Shown: positions 18,749-26,419, counted from the first letter of the stretch. The stretch is 64,000 bases of DNA from a virus (IMGVR_UViG_3300009702_000025:1580-65579), one strand, 5' to 3'. Notes: generated by a model not told the origin, from the letters alone. Program-made: numbers and translations.

Positions 18749-20290
18749 TTACCAGACACATCCGCTTACTAGCGCTTCTTTATTCTTGTTAACTTTATTA
18801 GCTATGAAAGACTCTTCTTCATTGTAGTAGCCGCCAGTACCGTTAGTAGCAGTCCACCACACAGGAGAAGTTACCAAGTTGGCGTATAAGTGGTTGTAAG
18901 CAATACCAACGGCGACAACTTGGTCATCATGTCCACTCGTGGCTGGCGGGTACTCATCAAATTCCTGTCTAAAAGGTTCTACCCAAGGACCTTCCTGTGC
19001 AACAATACGCTGATACTCTACAGCAGCAATGACAGGTTGTACACGGGCAACTTGCTTCTTGCCACCTACCGGAACAGGGATAACGTTAAATTCAGGCAAG
19101 ACATTGCGCATATAGTGTTCGATCAATGCTTTACCTTGCGAGCCCGGTTCTTGCTCTATCAAGATATCCACCGTGGTCCCATCGAACTCAGCAGTGCGAC
19201 GTATCTCTTCTTCGATCTTCAGGGGAGAAATCTGTTTACGCCTGACATCAAGTATGTAGCCACGTGAGCTATCTACTTCCTTTCCAAGCAGGGCACCAAC
19301 GGTAAAGTCGCCGCCACCTTCAGTCGCAGCCATATCCCATGCACGAGCTTTTTTAAGAGAAGTAAAGTGGTTGTGTCCAAGTGGCTCTACCACTCTCAGC
19401 CACTCACCATTCGTCAGTGCTGAGATATCATCAATCGGACGTTGCTGATACAGACTTTCCCAAAGGAACGTGCCGGTACGAGCCTGCTTAATTTCATTCA
19501 AGCGTTCCAGTGGATAACGCTCAGGGAATAGAGCGTCACCTTTCTTACGTCCAAGAATATCGTCTTCTAACGCTATAGCGGGAAATTCAATGTACTCCCA
19601 CTTTTCACGGAACGATGAAGAAAGGATTCTACCAATGATGTCACGAGTTGCCCAGCGTGTCGCAACAATGATGACTGTAGCGCCCGGTTCCAAACGAGTA
19701 TCAAGGTTAGCAAGGAAGTTAAGCCACAACTTCTCAAGGTGTGCAGGAGACATAGCCTCCTCAATGCCCTTGATGTAGTCATCCACAATTAACAAGTGTG
19801 CGCCCTTACCAGTCGCACCGGAGTTGATACCAAGGAAGTAGACTTCTGACCCTGCAACGGTCATGAAGTGATCTACTCGTTTAACATCCTTACGTACTTT
19901 TACGCTAAACAAGTCTTCACGGTTGAGCATAGTATCACGGGCTGCTCTACCAAACTTCTCTGCTTGATCCGAGTTGTAAGAGGTTAGGATAACGTCTGAT
20001 CCGGGGAACTTCTCTAAGAACCATGGAATAGTAGTTTCCGAGATCAACCGGGATTTACCCGTACGGGGAGGCATACTTAAAATAAGGCGACCATTACCTT
20101 TAAGAATAGCGTGTGCAATACGATGTGATGCATACACAAGGTGCTTACCGGGTATCCACCTGTTAGTGCCTGTTGGCCACAGGTTCATAGCTAGAGTAGC
20201 AGGTGTCAGGAATGGATCACCTATGAGAGATTGTAATTCGTTGGCTTGCATCTTAACAAAACTATTGTTGACACTTAACTTCAACGACAC
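18749..20290 (-). CDS. terL: Terminase large subunit
   Basis: Walker A MPPRTGKS, Walker B LLIVDD, YQQRP, RAWDMAATEGGGDFTVG nuclease motif, HDDQV; true start may be ATG 20251. Confidence 0.95.
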   Translation of the reverse strand: MSLKLSVNNSFVKMQANELQSLIGDPFLTPATLAMNLWPTGTNRWIPGKHLVYASHRIAHAILKGNGRLILSMPPRTGKSRLISETTIPWFLEKFPGSDVILTSYNSDQAEKFGRAARDTMLNREDLFSVKVRKDVKRVDHFMTVAGSEVYFLGINSGATGKGAHLLIVDDYIKGIEEAMSPAHLEKLWLNFLANLDTRLEPGATVIIVATRWATRDIIGRILSSSFREKWEYIEFPAIALEDDILGRKKGDALFPERYPLERLNEIKQARTGTFLWESLYQQRPIDDISALTNGEWLRVVEPLGHNHFTSLKKARAWDMAATEGGGDFTVGALLGKEVDSSRGYILDVRRKQISPLKIEEEIRRTAEFDGTTVDILIEQEPGSQGKALIEHYMRNVLPEFNVIPVPVGGKKQVARVQPVIAAVEYQRIVAQEGPWVEPFRQEFDEYPPATSGHDDQVVAVGIAYNHLYANLVTSPVWWTATNGTGGYYNEEESFIANKVNKNKEALVSGCVW

Positions 20291-20299
20291 TATATACAG

Positions 20300-20730
20300 A
20301 CTGAACGTGGAAGCAACAACTTACCACCACAAAAGCCGCCTTTGCTCTACGGCCTGCTACCCGCAACGGCCTAGATCGCAAAGCAGATGTTGCCTCACGA
20401 ACCAGCCGTCAGACGCCCTCTGATACGGCACATTGAGAGACCCGGTAGGAAGCCGCAGCCCACCGGGTCTTTCTTTTGGCTGGACATATTCCCCATTCCC
20501 CGCTATAGGCCACATCACCACACCCGATGCATACGCGAGCCTCCAAGGCAAACGCGTGTGGACGTTAACCTTCAACCCCAAGCGCACATACAGAGCGTTT
20601 GGCTACCGTGCCCGGTTAAAATGGCCCTGCTCTTCGAAAAATAGCCTTTTTCGGAGCGTATAAGTACGTCTACCCCACACCCGATGCACCACGTCCTCCA
20701 AGGCCGAGTAGGGCGGTAGCGAACCCAATA
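20300..20730 (-). ncRNA. Candidate structured ncRNA or long leader upstream of terL
   Basis: At least six stem-loops; G-U pairs favour the minus strand; two hairpins share GCCUUGGAGG and UGCAUCGGGUGUGG with different stems; no convincing CDS. Confidence 0.5.
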
Positions 20731-20741
20731 CTATGTGAGCC

Positions 20742-20954
20742 ATGTCGGAATTACATTGGGGAGAACCAGAACATCCCAGCAAAATAGCCTTCTTAATAGA
20801 CGGTTATCACTACAAGTGTACTGACGATACTGAATATCGGTTCATCCGTTATCCTGAGCCTCAATGGCAAGAACGGAGAATAAGGGCAATGTACGGTTTC
20901 TCTATATTTCATCGCTTTTCTGGGTACATGAAACTAGGTAAAGTTGAAAAGTAA
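20742..20954 (+). CDS. Hypothetical protein (70 aa)
   Basis: ORF track; plausible composition, weak RBS. Confidence 0.4.
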   Translation: MSELHWGEPEHPSKIAFLIDGYHYKCTDDTEYRFIRYPEPQWQERRIRAMYGFSIFHRFSGYMKLGKVEK

Positions 20955-20981
20955 TTCGTCATTTTGAATTATGACTAAATG

Positions 20982-21010
20982 TTGACACTCTGGTTTAACT
21001 CTGCCACTAT
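20982..21010 (+). promoter_or_regulatory. Sigma70-like promoter for nrdJ
   Basis: TTGACA-17 nt-CACTAT(ATAT). Confidence 0.45.
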
Positions 21011-21102
21011 ATATGCTTCTGCGGACTGCGGCAAAGTCCATAAGAAAAATGACAGAAACTGAACATCCTGCTCACTAGTAATGGGCGGGAACAACTATTC
21101 CT

Positions 21103-24100
21103 ATGGGTGTAGGCATGAAAGTAGACCGTCTATTCACGATGAACTTAGATGGATCAAAAGGACAAAGCCACGATCCGTTCTCCTTATTCAGATGGAAAGA
21201 AGTAGCCGTCCTAATCAAGGATGCACAAGGGAACATACTCTGTGATATACCAAATCTCGAAGTACCAGAACATTGGTCGCAACAAGCGGCAGAAATACTT
21301 GGACACAAATATCTCCGCAAGTCAGGCGTTCACTCTGGTTACGAGAAAAAAGATGAGCCCCATGTTCCAAAGTGGCTCCAACGGGTAAAACCCGGTACTG
21401 CTACTGAAGAATTACCGGGTAGCGAAACATCCTTCCGACAAGTTGCTCACCGCATTGCAAGCCATTGGACTTACGCAGGCTGGAACCGTGGATACTTCGG
21501 TCCAACAACTACTCTTCAAGATGGTGTAGCCGGACAGGAACCTGAAGATTTCGAAACGAGGACAATTATTACTCCTGCTTCGGAAGAAAATGCGAGAGCT
21601 TTCTATGACGAGATCGTCTATATGCTCTGCGCACAAATGGTAGCTCCGAACTCTCCACAGTTCTTCAATACTGGCTTGTGGTGGGCATACGGTACTCGTG
21701 GCGAAACGATCAACTGGATCGCAAACCTCAACCAAGACGTAGACAAGTCTGATTTGCGTGTTCCGTCCGAACAGCTTGGTATAGACAATGCCTACGAATA
21801 CCCACAAACGTCAGCCTGTTTTATCTCCTCCATCGAAGATACTCTGATCGGCAAGAACGGCATTATGGATGCCTTAACTCGCGAAGCTACGATCTTCAAG
21901 TACGGCAGTGGTAGCGGGATCAACTACTCCACGCTACGCGCCAAGGGTGCAAGCCTCTCTAGTGGGGGTAAGTCTTCTGGCATGATGTCCTTCCTCAAAG
22001 TGTTCGATGCGAACGCTGGTGCAATAAAGAGTGGTGGTACTACTAGACGTGCTGCCCGTATGGTAACTGTAAATGCGGATCATCCAGAAGCACTAGACTT
22101 CGTGAAGTGGAAACACCGAGAAGAACTCAAAGTCGCTGCTATGGAGATAGGTGCTTCCTTTATGGAAGAAGGAGCTGTTGACGCAGGAGAACATGATGAT
22201 GCTGACTTACTTTCTACATTGAATGGTGACTATGAAAGCGAAGCCTACGAAACGGTAAGTGGTCAGAACTCCAACAACTCCCTCCGTGTGACTGACGAGT
22301 ATATGGAAACTCTTTCCGAAGACTTAGAAGACGACAAGTTTCATATGTCTTCTACTCCTAGTGGAGTACCAATGGAGCCTTCTGAAGATATCATTAGTGA
22401 GCACAATCTTGTAGAAAGGAACCAAGAACTCTGGGATGCACTTACTAAGTGTGCTTGGAGTTGTGGTGATCCGGGTATTCAGTTCCACGATACTGCCAAT
22501 AAGTGGCATACGGTCCCAAAAGTAGATGCTATAAATGCTTCTAATCCATGTTCAGAGTTCATGTTTTTGGATAATTCGGCGTGTAATTTAGCGTCTATTA
22601 ACCTAATTGCCTTCTACAAAGAGGGTAGTTCGCAGTTCGATGCCATGGGTTTCATGCATGTTGTGGACCTATTCATACGAGTTCTGGACATAACAGTAGG
22701 TATGTCGAGCTATCCAGACCGAGTTGTAGCCGAGAACTCTGTTAAATACCGTCCATTGGGCCTTGGTTACGCCAATCTAGGCGGACTTCTCATGGCAATG
22801 GGCGTTCCGTATGGTTCAAAAGAGGGATTACGGGTCGCAGCAGCGGTCACAAGCCTTATGCAAGCCCAATCCTTCCATACTTCGGCTGAGATGGCTCGTA
22901 AGATCGGACCTTTCCACGACTATTCCACTCATCACGATGATGTAAAGCGAGTTATAGCACTACATAGAGACGGATGCGATCATCTTGAGTACGCCGATAT
23001 TGTTGACCCTGTGGATAATGACCCTATTGGTCGTGTGCTTGAAGAACAAGAAGTATTGTGGAACACACTTGATATATCGGATGGTATACGTAATGCCCAA
23101 CTTACCTTGTTAGCCCCGACTGGTACTATCTCATTTATTATGGACTGTGCTACCACCGGGATTGAACCTGAGTTCTCTCTTATCAAAATGAAGAAACTGG
23201 CTGGTGGTGGGACCATGAAGATGGTCAACCCAATGATAGCTCGCGGTCTTGATGCTTTGGGCTACGATCAATCAGAGATCAATAGCATTCTTGAGTTCAT
23301 CGAAGAACACGGTGTAGTTCCTGTTGAAGACTTAGAGCACCCGTCTCATGCCGAAGTATTCGATTGTGCCAATGACATTCCATGGCAACAGCACATAGCC
23401 ATGATGGCATATGTTCAACCGTTCCTCTCTGGTGCTATCTCCAAGACAGTGAATATGCCTGCTAATGCGACCAGAAAGGATGTCGCACAGTCTTACGTCA
23501 TGGCATGGAAGCTCGGTCTGAAGGCACTGGCGATCTATCGAGATGGCTGCAAAGACTCTCAGCCCCTCACGGCCTTGAAGAAAGACAAGGACACGACCGG
23601 GAGCGGTACAGGCGGTAATGGCTCAGATGAGAACCGCGAGAATACGGGCACGCCACACGATCAGGAGCGTATCCCCGAGCCTGTTATGGAAGCTCCGGCT
23701 CCACAGCCCATGCCTAATCCGGAACCGGAACGTCAGCCTGAGCCGGAACCTGTTGCGGTTCCAGCGGTTGATCCAGCGGTGTCTGAACACATCGATCCAG
23801 TGACCGGAAAGTTCGAACCTCCAAAGGATGAGAACGGGAAGAGGAGTGGACTTCGAAAAACTGGCTACATCCGGTGTGATGCAGAAGGTAATCCTTTGAA
23901 AGCAGGAAGCCGTTACAAGCTACCTGCTAGACGTGCTGGCTTCACTCAGAAGGTCAGGGTCGGCGGCTACAACATGTACTTGCGGACTGGCGAGTACGAA
24001 GACGGTTCCGTCGGGGAAGTCTTCATCACCATTGGTAAAGAAGGTTCCATGATGAAGCACGTCGTTGACGCCCTCGCTATCGCGATGTCTCTCGGCTTGC

Positions 24101-24624
24101 AATACGGTGTTCCATTGGATGAGTACGTTGAAGCCTTCGTAGATAGCAGATCGGAACCCAGTGGCTTTGTGTCGGGAAGTGAGAATGTACGTATGTGCTC
24201 CTCGCTTCTTGACTACATCGTCAAGGAACTCGACGCGACTTATGGACATGGACAATTCCTTTCTAAGAAGGACGGGGTTGAACCAACTGTTTATGTCGAT
24301 CACGCTGGTCCCGGTGGAGATACTACTGTCTATCATACCGTGAGCCCAAGTGCACGCCTTGAGCTTCCTAAGAAGGCCAATGAAAGTAAGTTGCCCGTAC
24401 TTAACCCATCCAAGACGAATAATGCAAATGGTTCTGATGGTACGCACATAACAAGTACTGGACTTGTTGCTAATGTACGACACATGACTGCTAATGGGAA
24501 AGGGCATGTTACGAAAATTGCTTATAGCGGAAGTCCGTGTCCGTCGTGCTTTGATTTCACACTACGGCGCAACGGAAGTTGTTTCGTATGTGATAACTGC
24601 GGATCAACAACTGGATGTAGTTGA
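21103..24624 (+). CDS. nrdJ: Class II (adenosylcobalamin-dependent) ribonucleotide reductase with TSCPD domain and C-terminal Zn ribbon
   Basis: APNSPQFFNTG, SACFI, GGTTRRAARM, NPCSEF catalytic loop, IAPTGT-like LAPTGTIS, SGAISKTVN, CPSC..CDNCGSTTGCS C-terminus. Confidence 0.95.
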   Translation: MGVGMKVDRLFTMNLDGSKGQSHDPFSLFRWKEVAVLIKDAQGNILCDIPNLEVPEHWSQQAAEILGHKYLRKSGVHSGYEKKDEPHVPKWLQRVKPGTATEELPGSETSFRQVAHRIASHWTYAGWNRGYFGPTTTLQDGVAGQEPEDFETRTIITPASEENARAFYDEIVYMLCAQMVAPNSPQFFNTGLWWAYGTRGETINWIANLNQDVDKSDLRVPSEQLGIDNAYEYPQTSACFISSIEDTLIGKNGIMDALTREATIFKYGSGSGINYSTLRAKGASLSSGGKSSGMMSFLKVFDANAGAIKSGGTTRRAARMVTVNADHPEALDFVKWKHREELKVAAMEIGASFMEEGAVDAGEHDDADLLSTLNGDYESEAYETVSGQNSNNSLRVTDEYMETLSEDLEDDKFHMSSTPSGVPMEPSEDIISEHNLVERNQELWDALTKCAWSCGDPGIQFHDTANKWHTVPKVDAINASNPCSEFMFLDNSACNLASINLIAFYKEGSSQFDAMGFMHVVDLFIRVLDITVGMSSYPDRVVAENSVKYRPLGLGYANLGGLLMAMGVPYGSKEGLRVAAAVTSLMQAQSFHTSAEMARKIGPFHDYSTHHDDVKRVIALHRDGCDHLEYADIVDPVDNDPIGRVLEEQEVLWNTLDISDGIRNAQLTLLAPTGTISFIMDCATTGIEPEFSLIKMKKLAGGGTMKMVNPMIARGLDALGYDQSEINSILEFIEEHGVVPVEDLEHPSHAEVFDCANDIPWQQHIAMMAYVQPFLSGAISKTVNMPANATRKDVAQSYVMAWKLGLKALAIYRDGCKDSQPLTALKKDKDTTGSGTGGNGSDENRENTGTPHDQERIPEPVMEAPAPQPMPNPEPERQPEPEPVAVPAVDPAVSEHIDPVTGKFEPPKDENGKRSGLRKTGYIRCDAEGNPLKAGSRYKLPARRAGFTQKVRVGGYNMYLRTGEYEDGSVGEVFITIGKEGSMMKHVVDALAIAMSLGLQYGVPLDEYVEAFVDSRSEPSGFVSGSENVRMCSSLLDYIVKELDATYGHGQFLSKKDGVEPTVYVDHAGPGGDTTVYHTVSPSARLELPKKANESKLPVLNPSKTNNANGSDGTHITSTGLVANVRHMTANGKGHVTKIAYSGSPCPSCFDFTLRRNGSCFVCDNCGSTTGCS

Positions 24625-24662
24625 GAGGATTACTAAACTTCTTTAGTGAAGGTGGTAAACTG

Positions 24663-24703
24663 GGACCTGATACACTTAGGTGTTGATGGTCCTTTTTTTT
24701 TTT
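24663..24703 (+). terminator. Rho-independent terminator after nrdJ
   Basis: GGACC..ACAC-TTAG-GTGT..GGTCC hairpin followed by T11. Confidence 0.8.
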
Positions 24704-24716
24704 CTAGCTATCACGC

Positions 24717-25070
24717 TCATAGCTGTGCTGAACTTTCGACGAATAATTGGTAAACAAGACAGTCCGTAATAGACATAAAATCTTCATTCATACGTCGCAA
24801 TTCCTCAACCTTACCCACATTACGTATTACGGTAGCACGCCACCGTTTGAACGTATCGGCCACACGATCCCACGTCCAATTCATCTTCTCCCGTGCGATC
24901 CACATAGCAACGTGGCGTGGCATAGAGCGATGATTGGTTCTGAGCTCATTGATGAAATAATCCTCTCCGACGCGGTAGTAATCGCCTACAACCTCAAGGA
25001 GATCGGTTAAGTCTGGCAGAGTACTCTCTGACATTGTTGTTATCTCTGCGCTAGTAGCCATGTGTGTCAT
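24717..25070 (-). CDS. Stand-alone DnaA C-terminal (domain IV) helix-turn-helix-like protein
   Basis: RSMPRHVAMWIAREKMNWTWDRVADTFKRWRATVIRNVGKVEELR matches the Bac_DnaA_C pattern (R..PRQ.AMY..R......I...F.RDH.TV..A..K.E). Confidence 0.7.
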   Translation of the reverse strand: MTHMATSAEITTMSESTLPDLTDLLEVVGDYYRVGEDYFINELRTNHRSMPRHVAMWIAREKMNWTWDRVADTFKRWRATVIRNVGKVEELRRMNEDFMSITDCLVYQLFVESSAQL

Positions 25071-25474: not shown

Positions 25475-26419
25475 CTAGTCGTCGTGATTAGCATGATTAG
25501 CTGCTTGAGCTTTCTCATTGACAGTCATTAATACAGCCAATGCGGCTTCTTGAAGTTCGGCGGCCTTTTCGGGATCACTCGCTATAGCGGCTTCTACCTT
25601 CTTACGCATCTCTCCTGCTTTAGAAGTTTCTCCTTCAGAACCATCGTGCATCTTGACCGCTTCCTGCATGGAACGGTTGATAGAGGCGTGTTCTGGGATG
25701 GCTAGCTCATCTCCGAAGGTGCGTGGTCCCTTGGCTGGCAAACGCAGTGCGATACGCTGCATTTCAACCATGTCTGCGACTGCTTCGATAAGGTGTTTGG
25801 CTGTCATGCCCTCAAAGGGACGGTTATTCTGATTTTCGGTTGTGCGAGTTGTAAGTTCCGCGCCCAACAGGTTTAAGACCTTAGTTGAGAACTGGAAGTG
25901 AGTGTCCTCTGCCATCAAGACCCGTTGGTCACGTAGCTTCGCGGCTGCTACTGGGCGCAATAGATCATAGGCACGAGCACGTTCATCCCAATAGTAGAGG
26001 ATATAGGCTTCATGCATAGTAGTGGACGACATAGCGGGTAGTTGATTGCCAAGTTCATACGGACTGCGAATAGGCATATTGAGGTAAGCCGAGAAAGCGC
26101 TATAGAAGCTCTCAGGCTCATGAGGTAAGCGTTCCCATACTGGTACGTTGAAATTGAAGCTCAAGTAACCCTCAAGTAGTGATAGGGGTATCTTAGCTAC
26201 TTCAATTAGTTCTAGCTGTTTGGTTTCTGGCCTCTTGAGGATATCAGTCGGTAAGTGACTGTGATCCAGCAAGTAGGTCGGGAACCCGTTTCTGTCGCGT
26301 GGTATGCGCGCCGATAGGCTCTCGAACGTTTTCAAGAGTTCTTCTTGGGACGCGCTTAGTGCTGGAAGAGTCCCAGTTGGCTCTTTTGGCTCTTGGTCAT
26401 ATGCCGTGTGTTCATCCAT
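25475..26419 (-). CDS. Putative terminase small subunit-like protein
   Basis: WERLPHEPESFYSAFSAY...RS...WDERARAYD resembles a motif in phage TerS-like proteins; helical C-terminus. Confidence 0.5.
   Translation of the reverse strand: MDEHTAYDQEPKEPTGTLPALSASQEELLKTFESLSARIPRDRNGFPTYLLDHSHLPTDILKRPETKQLELIEVAKIPLSLLEGYLSFNFNVPVWERLPHEPESFYSAFSAYLNMPIRSPYELGNQLPAMSSTTMHEAYILYYWDERARAYDLLRPVAAAKLRDQRVLMAEDTHFQFSTKVLNLLGAELTTRTTENQNNRPFEGMTAKHLIEAVADMVEMQRIALRLPAKGPRTFGDELAIPEHASINRSMQEAVKMHDGSEGETSKAGEMRKKVEAAIASDPEKAAELQEAALAVLMTVNEKAQAANHANHDD

Follow-up and report, generated by a model that had tools for sequence, protein, structure and literature searches.

What is encoded by the stem-rich DNA directly upstream of the large terminase gene (terL) of an uncultured virus, and on which strand is it read? 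We addressed this question in a 64-kb window (the whole stretch of DNA analyzed, 64,000 nt; IMGVR_UViG_3300009702_000025, positions 1580-65579) of a 70,142-bp IMG/VR virus record, where an original prediction, made by a model from the sequence alone, had described positions 20300-20730 as a single ~430-nt structured RNA on the terL strand with two conserved-loop hairpins. The flagged region belongs to a divergent intergenic region (20252-21102) with terL, on the minus strand, on one side and the gene of a class II ribonucleotide reductase (RNR), on the plus strand, on the other, and its GC content is 56-57% compared with ~46% in the surroundings. We found there a ~190-nt module (20518-20706) that represents a new RNA-like family, confined to one clade of phages and outside Rfam, and our best guess is that it is a cis-acting leader or non-coding RNA of an RNR island running opposite to terL. 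The proposal of an undescribed structured RNA therefore stands insofar as the element is conserved, covarying, free of open reading frames (ORFs) and outside Rfam, while its form as one 430-nt RNA on the terL strand does not.

A covarying RNA-like module flanked by two direct repeats

No DNA match to the window was found among GenBank phages, and the nearest TerL of a cultured phage, that of Brevundimonas phages, is 35% identical. Relatives were found by TerL searches of IMG/VR, JGI and Logan assemblies, which recovered a clade of ~65-80-kb phage contigs with TerL proteins 49-61% identical to that of the window; in most of them the RNR gene is divergent from terL, with a gap of 400-860 nt. The module is borne by nine phages (the window's and those of contigs L001, L017, L076, L077, L078, L080, L085 and L086), whereas L075 and L081 are without it and L087 has a reduced core. 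Its parts in the window are as follows.

20518-20549, plus strand: repeat R2 (box 2 at 20518-20531, box 1 at 20540-20549)
20550-20602, plus strand: variable hairpin region between R2 and the conserved core, not alignable among genomes
20596-20706, plus strand (as a best guess only): conserved core, comprising a reduced Pc remnant, Pb, Pa and R1
20671-20706, plus strand: repeat R1 (box 2 at 20675-20688, box 1 at 20695-20704)

The 14-nt (box 2) and 10-nt (box 1) sequences that had been reported as shared are indeed exact and collinear in both copies, and neither was found elsewhere in the window, where other matches carry 3 and 1 mismatches, respectively. They belong to ~32-nt direct repeats, R1 and R2, which are present in 9 of 9 module phages at a distance of 134-164 nt from each other. 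The versions of box 1 and box 2 are genome-specific: within a genome R1 and R2 are identical at 0.79 of positions (0.84 in the boxes), compared with 0.64 between genomes (0.54 in the boxes). This joint change suggests one co-evolving partner that recognizes both copies. Searches for a sequence complementary to the boxes gave none that was consistent across genomes, and the two boxes taken as a -35/-10 pair on the terL strand were discarded, as their spacing would range, by our own count, from ~13 to 20 nt. In five relatives (L017, L085, L001, L077 and L080), the stretch separating the module from the proximal RNR promoter (P2) contains, 20-70 nt ahead of R1, genome-specific pairs of short direct or palindromic repeats (GGCGTACG twice, GTCTACAGAAT twice, CCCCTTGCAAC twice, or GTACAT facing ATGTAC), which could be operators or a further hairpin.

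The conserved structure resides in three hairpins, Pa, Pb and Pc, which lie between the repeats in a fixed order and show compensatory changes across the nine instances. On the plus strand the module reads R2, variable hairpin, Pc, Pb, Pa, R1, which in terL orientation becomes R1, Pa, Pb, Pc, variable hairpin, R2. In the window, the Pb arms (20632-20640 and 20648-20656) correspond to the CGAAAAA/UUUUUCG stem of the original prediction, and Pa pairs 20661-20664 with 20674-20677. The two hairpins that had been proposed around the repeats themselves did not hold up: they fold no better than shuffles (z of -0.44 and -0.47), and their closing stems (CUACC/GGUAG and CCACAC/GUGUGG) are specific to the window and not kept in relatives, so that the picture of conserved loops on variable stems has to be replaced by that of three other hairpins.

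A covariance model (model R1) was built from 7 sequences in terL orientation, and because of this orientation its match to the window core, at 77.6 bits, is reported on the minus strand. The model recovered two instances outside its seed, in L017 (90 bits) and L001 (27 bits), and the nine instances together score 27-115 bits. In the nine-sequence alignment, 89.1% of the cells pair, compared with 77.5% in shuffles and 35-44% in slid controls, and changes on both sides are seen in 11 of the 21 base pairs, a number reached by 0 of 500 shuffles; these figures are somewhat inflated by an alignment that was fitted to the model. Covariation among homologues, which had been proposed as a check, is thus present. 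The length of the Pb loop varies between 5 and 9 nt across genomes while its arms covary, which argues for single-strand folding and not for palindromic protein-binding sites.

As had been supposed, the element falls into no recognized Rfam family. At gathering score, Rfam 15 gave no match, either in the window or in 10 related loci. With the threshold relaxed to an E value of 10, only opuB appeared in the flagged element (21.4 bits against a cut-off of 75, judged to be chance), and the permissive scans gave nothing on the module in L017, L080, L085 and L086. The YrlA model did not match the module either, its only YrlA-like match lying beside the module in L086. When the regions upstream of RNR genes were inspected in 77 other viral contigs, the module was absent and only the contigs of L017 and L001 were recovered; the family is therefore confined to this clade. 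Core-motif patterns run on viral and genome contigs yielded nothing new beyond the L017 contig. Weak model matches in L131, L132 and L140 were judged spurious. A first repeat-pattern scan of viral contigs gave 31 matches, about the number that we estimate for chance, with the L001 contig as the only true relative among them, and four contigs with a vague likeness in the pattern scan (L044, L056, L066 and L070) had no covariance model match.

Two ORFs overlap or adjoin the module in the window:

20357-20587, minus strand: 76-aa ORF, judged spurious
20742-20954, plus strand: 70-aa ORF, not conserved, in an AT-rich insert specific to the window genome

Neither has relatives or a match in Pfam or PHROGs. 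The 76-aa ORF, which had been pointed out as a possible conserved protein, also lacks tblastx conservation, and where the window carries the AT-rich insert the relatives have only ~85-105 nt. The tblastx matches among relatives are spread over all six frames, with frame changes. One of the refuting conditions set in the original prediction, a conserved protein from the 76-aa ORF, is thereby decided in favor of a non-coding element. A leader peptide following the Shine-Dalgarno-like GGAG in R2 was considered and rejected, the candidate mini-ORFs being inconsistent among genomes.

A separate promoter-terminator unit adjoins terL

All the stems named in the original prediction are present in the sequence, but the proposed ~430-nt element is split by a plus-strand terminator (T1) and a plus-strand promoter (P3), and its 3' 180 nt, in the terL reading, form a separate promoter-terminator unit on the other strand. 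The signals concerned are the following.

20268-20296, plus strand: P1, sigma70-type promoter predicted from sequence (TTGACA at 20268-20273, 17-nt spacer, TATATA at 20291-20296), pointing away from terL
20303-20478, plus strand: predicted P1-T1 transcript, ~175 nt and hairpin-rich, including the stems GCCGU..CGGC and GCUUUGC..GCAAAGGC
20435-20478, plus strand: T1, intrinsic terminator (stem 20435-20473, GACCCGGU/ACCGGGUC; T tract 20470-20477)
20481-20509, plus strand: P3, promoter (TGGACA at 20481-20486, 17-nt spacer, TATAGG at 20504-20509), with a predicted start near 20516-20517

Three of the stems named originally fall inside the P1-T1 unit; the stem of T1 is the one given there as AGACCCGGU/ACCGGGUCU, and it is followed by TTTCTTTT. 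The unit combines, on one strand, promoter hexamers with a spacer within 16-18 nt and a GC-rich hairpin with a T tract, as expected of a promoter-to-terminator unit, and its fold z is -4.5 on the plus strand and -3.3 on the minus strand. The same layout of a consensus promoter, 80-175 nt and a strong plus-strand terminator is found beside the terL start in ~10 related ~70-kb phages: TTGACA-16/17-TATATT occurs there in L075, L076, L078, L080, L081, L085, L087 and L017, and in a weaker form in L001, and a hairpin with a T tract, on the plus strand only, is found at the T1 position in 10 relatives. The units of the relatives measure 82-120 nt, and the intervening sequence is unrelated among phages. 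In four of them (L076, L078, L080 and L085) the P1-T1 RNA would expose CCUCCC-type C/U-rich hairpin loops that resemble an anti-Shine-Dalgarno sequence; the window has ACCACCAC in place of this motif.

The module is probably read away from terL

The P3 position holds the best promoter match in 9 of 9 module phages, with a 17-nt spacer except for one phage with 18 nt, and lies directly behind T1 with its -10 box ending 6-8 nt ahead of the first base of R2. The hexamers are conserved and the spacer sequence is not. Several of the -10 boxes (GCTACAAC) fit GCTANAWC, which we take to be the alphaproteobacterial consensus. P3 goes together with the module: L087 has a strong version, L075 and L081, without the module, have only a weak one, and in L017 it is intact beside R2 although a gene has been inserted behind it. 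This gene encodes a DUF6527 protein (PF20137, phrog_3362; L017:2466-2819, terL strand), sits between R2/P3 and the T1 terminator, and has a start codon that overlaps the -35 box of P3. Two further candidate signals past R2 were set aside: a conserved stop-like 'UAG'/UAA signal and a conserved 'GTCAAG' turned out to be P3 itself, the stop-like part being its -10 box, and G-quadruplex tracts occur only in some genomes and coincide with the P3 spacer.

The conserved geometry of P3, together with T1 directly upstream of it, makes plus-strand transcription of the module the better reading, and we therefore lean towards a module that is transcribed away from terL and towards the RNR gene. The terL-strand assignment of the original prediction is not upheld, given a positionally conserved promoter that points the opposite way. 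Fold z values are lower on the plus strand than on the terL strand for the module in the window (-2.5 vs +0.1), for the mean of the nine phages (-2.34 vs -1.74) and for the whole flagged region (-3.8 vs -1.8).

Several points weigh against this orientation and against the link to the RNR gene that it implies. Several P3 -10 boxes end in C and not in T (TACAAC). The base pairs of the covarying helices are neutral as to strand, with 8 G-U cells that pair only on the terL strand and 10 (A-C) that pair only on the other; the original argument that the G-U pairs make sense only on the terL strand loses its force by the same count. RNAalifold favors the terL strand (-22.5 kcal/mol compared with -16.9 kcal/mol on the plus strand), and Pa of the window contains two terL-strand G-U pairs that become A-C mismatches on the plus strand. 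The DUF6527 gene of L017 starts right after R2 on the terL strand, which implies that some transcription in the terL direction crosses or leaves the module. Moreover, as the module is absent before RNR genes in the 77 other contigs, its link to RNR is not separable from its link to terL. To these points are added the inflation of the covariation figures mentioned above and the fact that transcript starts, transcript ends and strand are predictions and the regulatory mechanism proposed below is one that we infer.

An RNR island with an NrdR-type promoter

The remaining signals and genes around the module are these:

20972-21019, plus strand: P2, proximal RNR promoter (TTGACA at 20982-20987), with two NrdR-type boxes (20972-20987 and 21004-21019) that overlap its -35 and -10 elements
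21103-24624, plus strand: class II (B12-type) RNR gene, 1173 aa, homologues with Ribonuc_red_2_N, Ribonuc_red_lgC and TSCPD domains
24663-24702, plus strand: RNR-gene terminator, a stem followed by a run of 11 T, one-directional
24717-25070, minus strand: DnaA-domain-IV-like helix-turn-helix (HTH) gene (PF08299, E 2e-10)
25475-26419, minus strand: TerS-like gene (phrog_6299, terminase small subunit; E 1.6e-6)
18749-20251, minus strand: terL, large terminase, an ORF with its ATG at 20251, homologues with Terminase_6N and Terminase_6C domains

P1, T1, P3, P2 with its NrdR boxes, the RNR gene and its terminator all lie on the plus strand. Since all the signals from 20268 to 24702 read in this direction, they form one opposite-strand island (~20260-24705) with the class II RNR as its cargo. 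In distant relatives (TerL identity 41-47%), a ~350-aa gene directly adjoins terL, and its homologue in the window is the TerS-like gene, which is ~5 kb from terL with the plus-strand RNR island in between. Because the terS-like gene abuts terL in those relatives, the RNR block represents an insertion between the terS-like and HTH genes and terL. The original remark that no small terminase gene sits here is consequently correct for the immediate surroundings and not for the wider locus. Both terminators of the island, T1 and that of the RNR gene, are one-directional, so transcription in the terL direction is not blocked by them. The RNR terminator is strong, and the convergent HTH gene ends at a stop codon 15 nt from it; a stand-alone DnaA-domain-IV HTH gene is kept beside the RNR island in L076, L078 and L080.

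NrdR operators consist of two 16-bp boxes with C4, A6, A8, T9, T11 and G13, separated by a linker of 15-16 bp, at an RNR promoter (PMC13584703). At P2, box 20972-20987 has 6 of the 6 positions and box 21004-21019 has 5 of 6; their starts are 32 bp apart, leaving a 16-bp linker. With such a canonical pair, the phage RNR gene looks wired to the host NrdR repressor. Relatives have single good NrdR boxes at the corresponding -35 position. NrdR control of P1 was considered and rejected: P1 has one box with 5 of 6 positions (20287-20302), its sole correctly spaced partner reaches 4 of 6, and the copy of the P2 upstream box is at a distance of only 13 bp. P1 (20266-20296) and P2 (20980-21013) share a 10-mer and a 9-mer (TGTTGACACT and CACTATATA), with a gap between the motifs of 12 nt at P1 and 15 nt at P2, and from its sequence P1 looks like a duplicated P2 that lacks the two-box NrdR spacing.

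The arrangement that we favor, and that we regard as an even call, is one of two tandem plus-strand units upstream of the RNR gene within the opposite-strand island, with the module as a cis-acting leader or a processed non-coding RNA. In the first unit, P1 would drive a ~175-nt hairpin-rich RNA that is stopped at T1, either a small RNA or an attenuated leader. In the second, the start of P3 would coincide with the first base of the ~190-nt structured module, and the transcript, having no terminator of its own, would run on to P2 and the RNR gene. The module could then form the 5' domain of a long RNR leader and exert its effect in cis, or it could be processed to a stable non-coding RNA. A single factor, co-evolving with the repeats, may bind at both R1 and R2 and thereby determine the share of P3 transcription that arrives at the RNR gene. 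A more specific version, which we consider unlikely, would have the module as a ligand- or protein-sensing RNA that passes NrdR-independent P3 transcription into the B12-dependent RNR gene and so bypasses host NrdR repression at P2 according to nucleotide demand or cofactor supply. If true, this sensor would represent a new class of cis-regulatory RNA for RNR genes, in which two identical boxes flank a three-hairpin core.

Alternative explanations for the module

Instead, in line with the second option of the original prediction (a leader of the virion operon), the module could belong to the late transcript (packaging and virion genes) and be a structured element of the terL strand, either a 5' leader from an unrecognized late promoter just upstream of R1 or an internal segment of a transcript that begins at the terS-like gene; it would then control elongation, stability or processing of the late mRNA, and the P1-T1 RNA and P3 would act as antisense regulators. 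We hold this to be doubtful, though it accounts for several observations: the RNAalifold consensus is better in this orientation and includes a GGCUU/GGAGCC pairing, Pa and Pc carry G-U pairs there, the DUF6527 gene of L017, with its Shine-Dalgarno sequence, directly follows R2, the one-directional T1 and RNR terminators leave the path towards terL unblocked, and the direct or inverted repeat pairs that several genomes have at 20-70 nt before R1 could be activator sites. Nevertheless, the sequence before R1 yielded no promoter on that strand in any of the genomes, the promoter-associated motif that precedes the terS-like gene does not occur here, the fold of the window module in this direction is no better than that of shuffles, and the conserved P3 geometry is left unexplained except as an antisense promoter. 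Processive antitermination of the late operon was also considered and dismissed, since terminator-like sites in that operon are at chance level and antitermination is not called for.

It is similarly conceivable that R1 and R2 act as DNA, whether as TerS sites of a pac region by terL, in the manner of SPP1 pacL/pacR, or as operators for the DnaA-domain-IV-like HTH protein, with the hairpins being incidental or palindromic sites. The joint change of R1 and R2 among genomes is what protein-co-evolving sites would show, R2 overlaps the predicted P3 start at a typical operator position, the place beside terL suits a packaging site, and HTH and TerS-like genes are conserved nearby. This explanation is nonetheless improbable in our view, because R1 and R2 of a single genome differ by 2-4 nt in their box-to-box spacing, the distance of 134-164 bp between the repeats follows no helical phasing, covarying arms with loops of 5-9 nt fit single-strand folding and not dimer half-sites, and the boxes are found nowhere else in the window. 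We rate as just as unlikely as the sensor that both units produce free-standing small RNAs acting in trans on host or phage mRNAs through exposed C-rich stretches. P1-T1 has the classic layout of a small-RNA gene, its counterparts in relatives present the CCUCCC-type loops, the repeats are C-rich on the plus strand with one at the very 5' end of the RNA, and in L086 the module is followed by a YrlA-like RNA and a Ro60 gene, all on one strand, which indicates that stable RNAs are made from this slot; on the other hand, the module is followed by no plus-strand terminator in any genome, and the P1-T1 RNA of the window is without a CCUCC motif. Finally, we consider it very improbable that a small protein is encoded here, be it the 76-aa ORF of the minus strand or a leader peptide, or that the similarity among genomes is due to chance. 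ORFs of 76, 59 and 45 aa do overlap the region and a Shine-Dalgarno-like GGAGG precedes a GUG or AUG by 5-7 nt in both repeats, but the absence of database matches and of tblastx conservation in any one of the six frames speaks against coding, as do mini-ORFs that differ in frame and length between L078 and L080 when the sequences are read, and chance is excluded by the covariation and by model scores of 78-115 bits.

Comparison with known systems

None of the known systems with which we compared the locus is a family match. Moron islands, in which a promoter, a gene and a terminator are inserted between core genes, have been described for HK97- and lambda-like phages. The RNR island resembles them in being self-contained, opposite in strand to the late genes and equipped with its own sigma70-type promoters and one-directional terminators, and in sitting between genes (terS-like and terL) that are adjacent in distant relatives; it departs from them in an upstream non-coding part of ~850 nt with three tandem promoters, an internal terminator and a structured module. 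Structured leaders of nrd genes are known as well, namely the cobalamin riboswitch before Streptomyces nrdABS and the 2'-deoxyguanosine riboswitch before RNR genes of Mesoplasma florum. Here, too, a conserved multi-hairpin RNA would lie between a promoter and an RNR gene, with an NrdR operator at the proximal promoter in addition, but no Rfam riboswitch matches even at an E value of up to 10, the module is followed by no terminator or helix sequestering a ribosome-binding site, and a second promoter stands between module and gene; the results point to no ligand.

Phages also make RNAs from promoter-to-terminator units, such as lambda PR'-6S RNA-tR' and the OOP and sar antisense RNAs. P1-T1 shares with these a consensus promoter followed by a strong terminator after 80-175 nt at a conserved position, although its sequence is unconserved among relatives; as it points away from the late genes, it is no Q-type late gate for terL. 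With phi29 pRNA the module has in common that it is an ORF-free structured phage RNA near packaging genes. The Rfam scans, which we take to include the pRNA model, gave no match to it, and the window phage differs in being a ~70-kb tailed phage with a TerS-like gene and in a module whose likely strand and promoter tie it to the RNR side. The link to packaging that the original prediction had raised is not supported. A functional analogy, and only that, can be drawn with the cis-acting antitermination RNAs HK022 putL/putR (PMC9378689) and pLS20 conAn2 (PMC8191782): the module likewise lies at or just after a promoter start, is built of hairpins with a duplicated sequence module and is ORF-free, and in size it comes closer to conAn2 (260-600 bp) than to put, but no intrinsic terminator was found between module and RNR gene on the plus strand and no ConAn1-like partner was identified.

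If the module is functional, it would constitute an uncatalogued RNA family with clear covariation, located where nucleotide-metabolism and packaging genes meet in a clade of uncultured phages of ~70 kb. The locus would then be a test case for a phage auxiliary RNR that is subject to host control and has both an NrdR operator and, upstream, an NrdR-independent promoter, for the role of two co-evolving recognition boxes on one RNA, and for opposite-strand islands alongside late transcription. It also advises caution in reading such regions, as a dense array of stems beside terL proved to consist of two units that are most likely read on the other strand.

Further features of the window phage and its relatives

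The window phage is a ~70-kb tailed phage with genes for an HK97-type capsid, a portal and a tail terminator besides the TerS-like gene. No tRNA or tmRNA was found in the window or in 11 related loci, and the genome of the window contains no TROVE gene. A Ro60 (TROVE) gene adjoins terL in two relatives (L086:391-2160 and L005:1187-2821). Ahead of this gene, L086 has a minus-strand YrlA-like RNA (1826-1932; 39.6 bits, with an Rfam cut-off of 69), after which come two further tRNA-like partial copies, none of which is called by ARAGORN; in this relative, a phage cassette of Ro60 and Y RNA shares the slot of the module. Two TerL homologues (P0021 and P0025, 852-866 aa) carry domains of the homing-endonuclease/intein type (PF05204 and PF14528), which suggests that some relatives have an intein in their TerL. 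For the clade as a whole, an alphaproteobacterial host is hinted at by the style of the promoters (TTGACG/GCTACAAC) and by the closest TerL proteins of cultured phages, those of Brevundimonas, Acetobacter and Bradyrhizobium phages. The sole run that contains the DNA is labelled as a subsurface metagenome.

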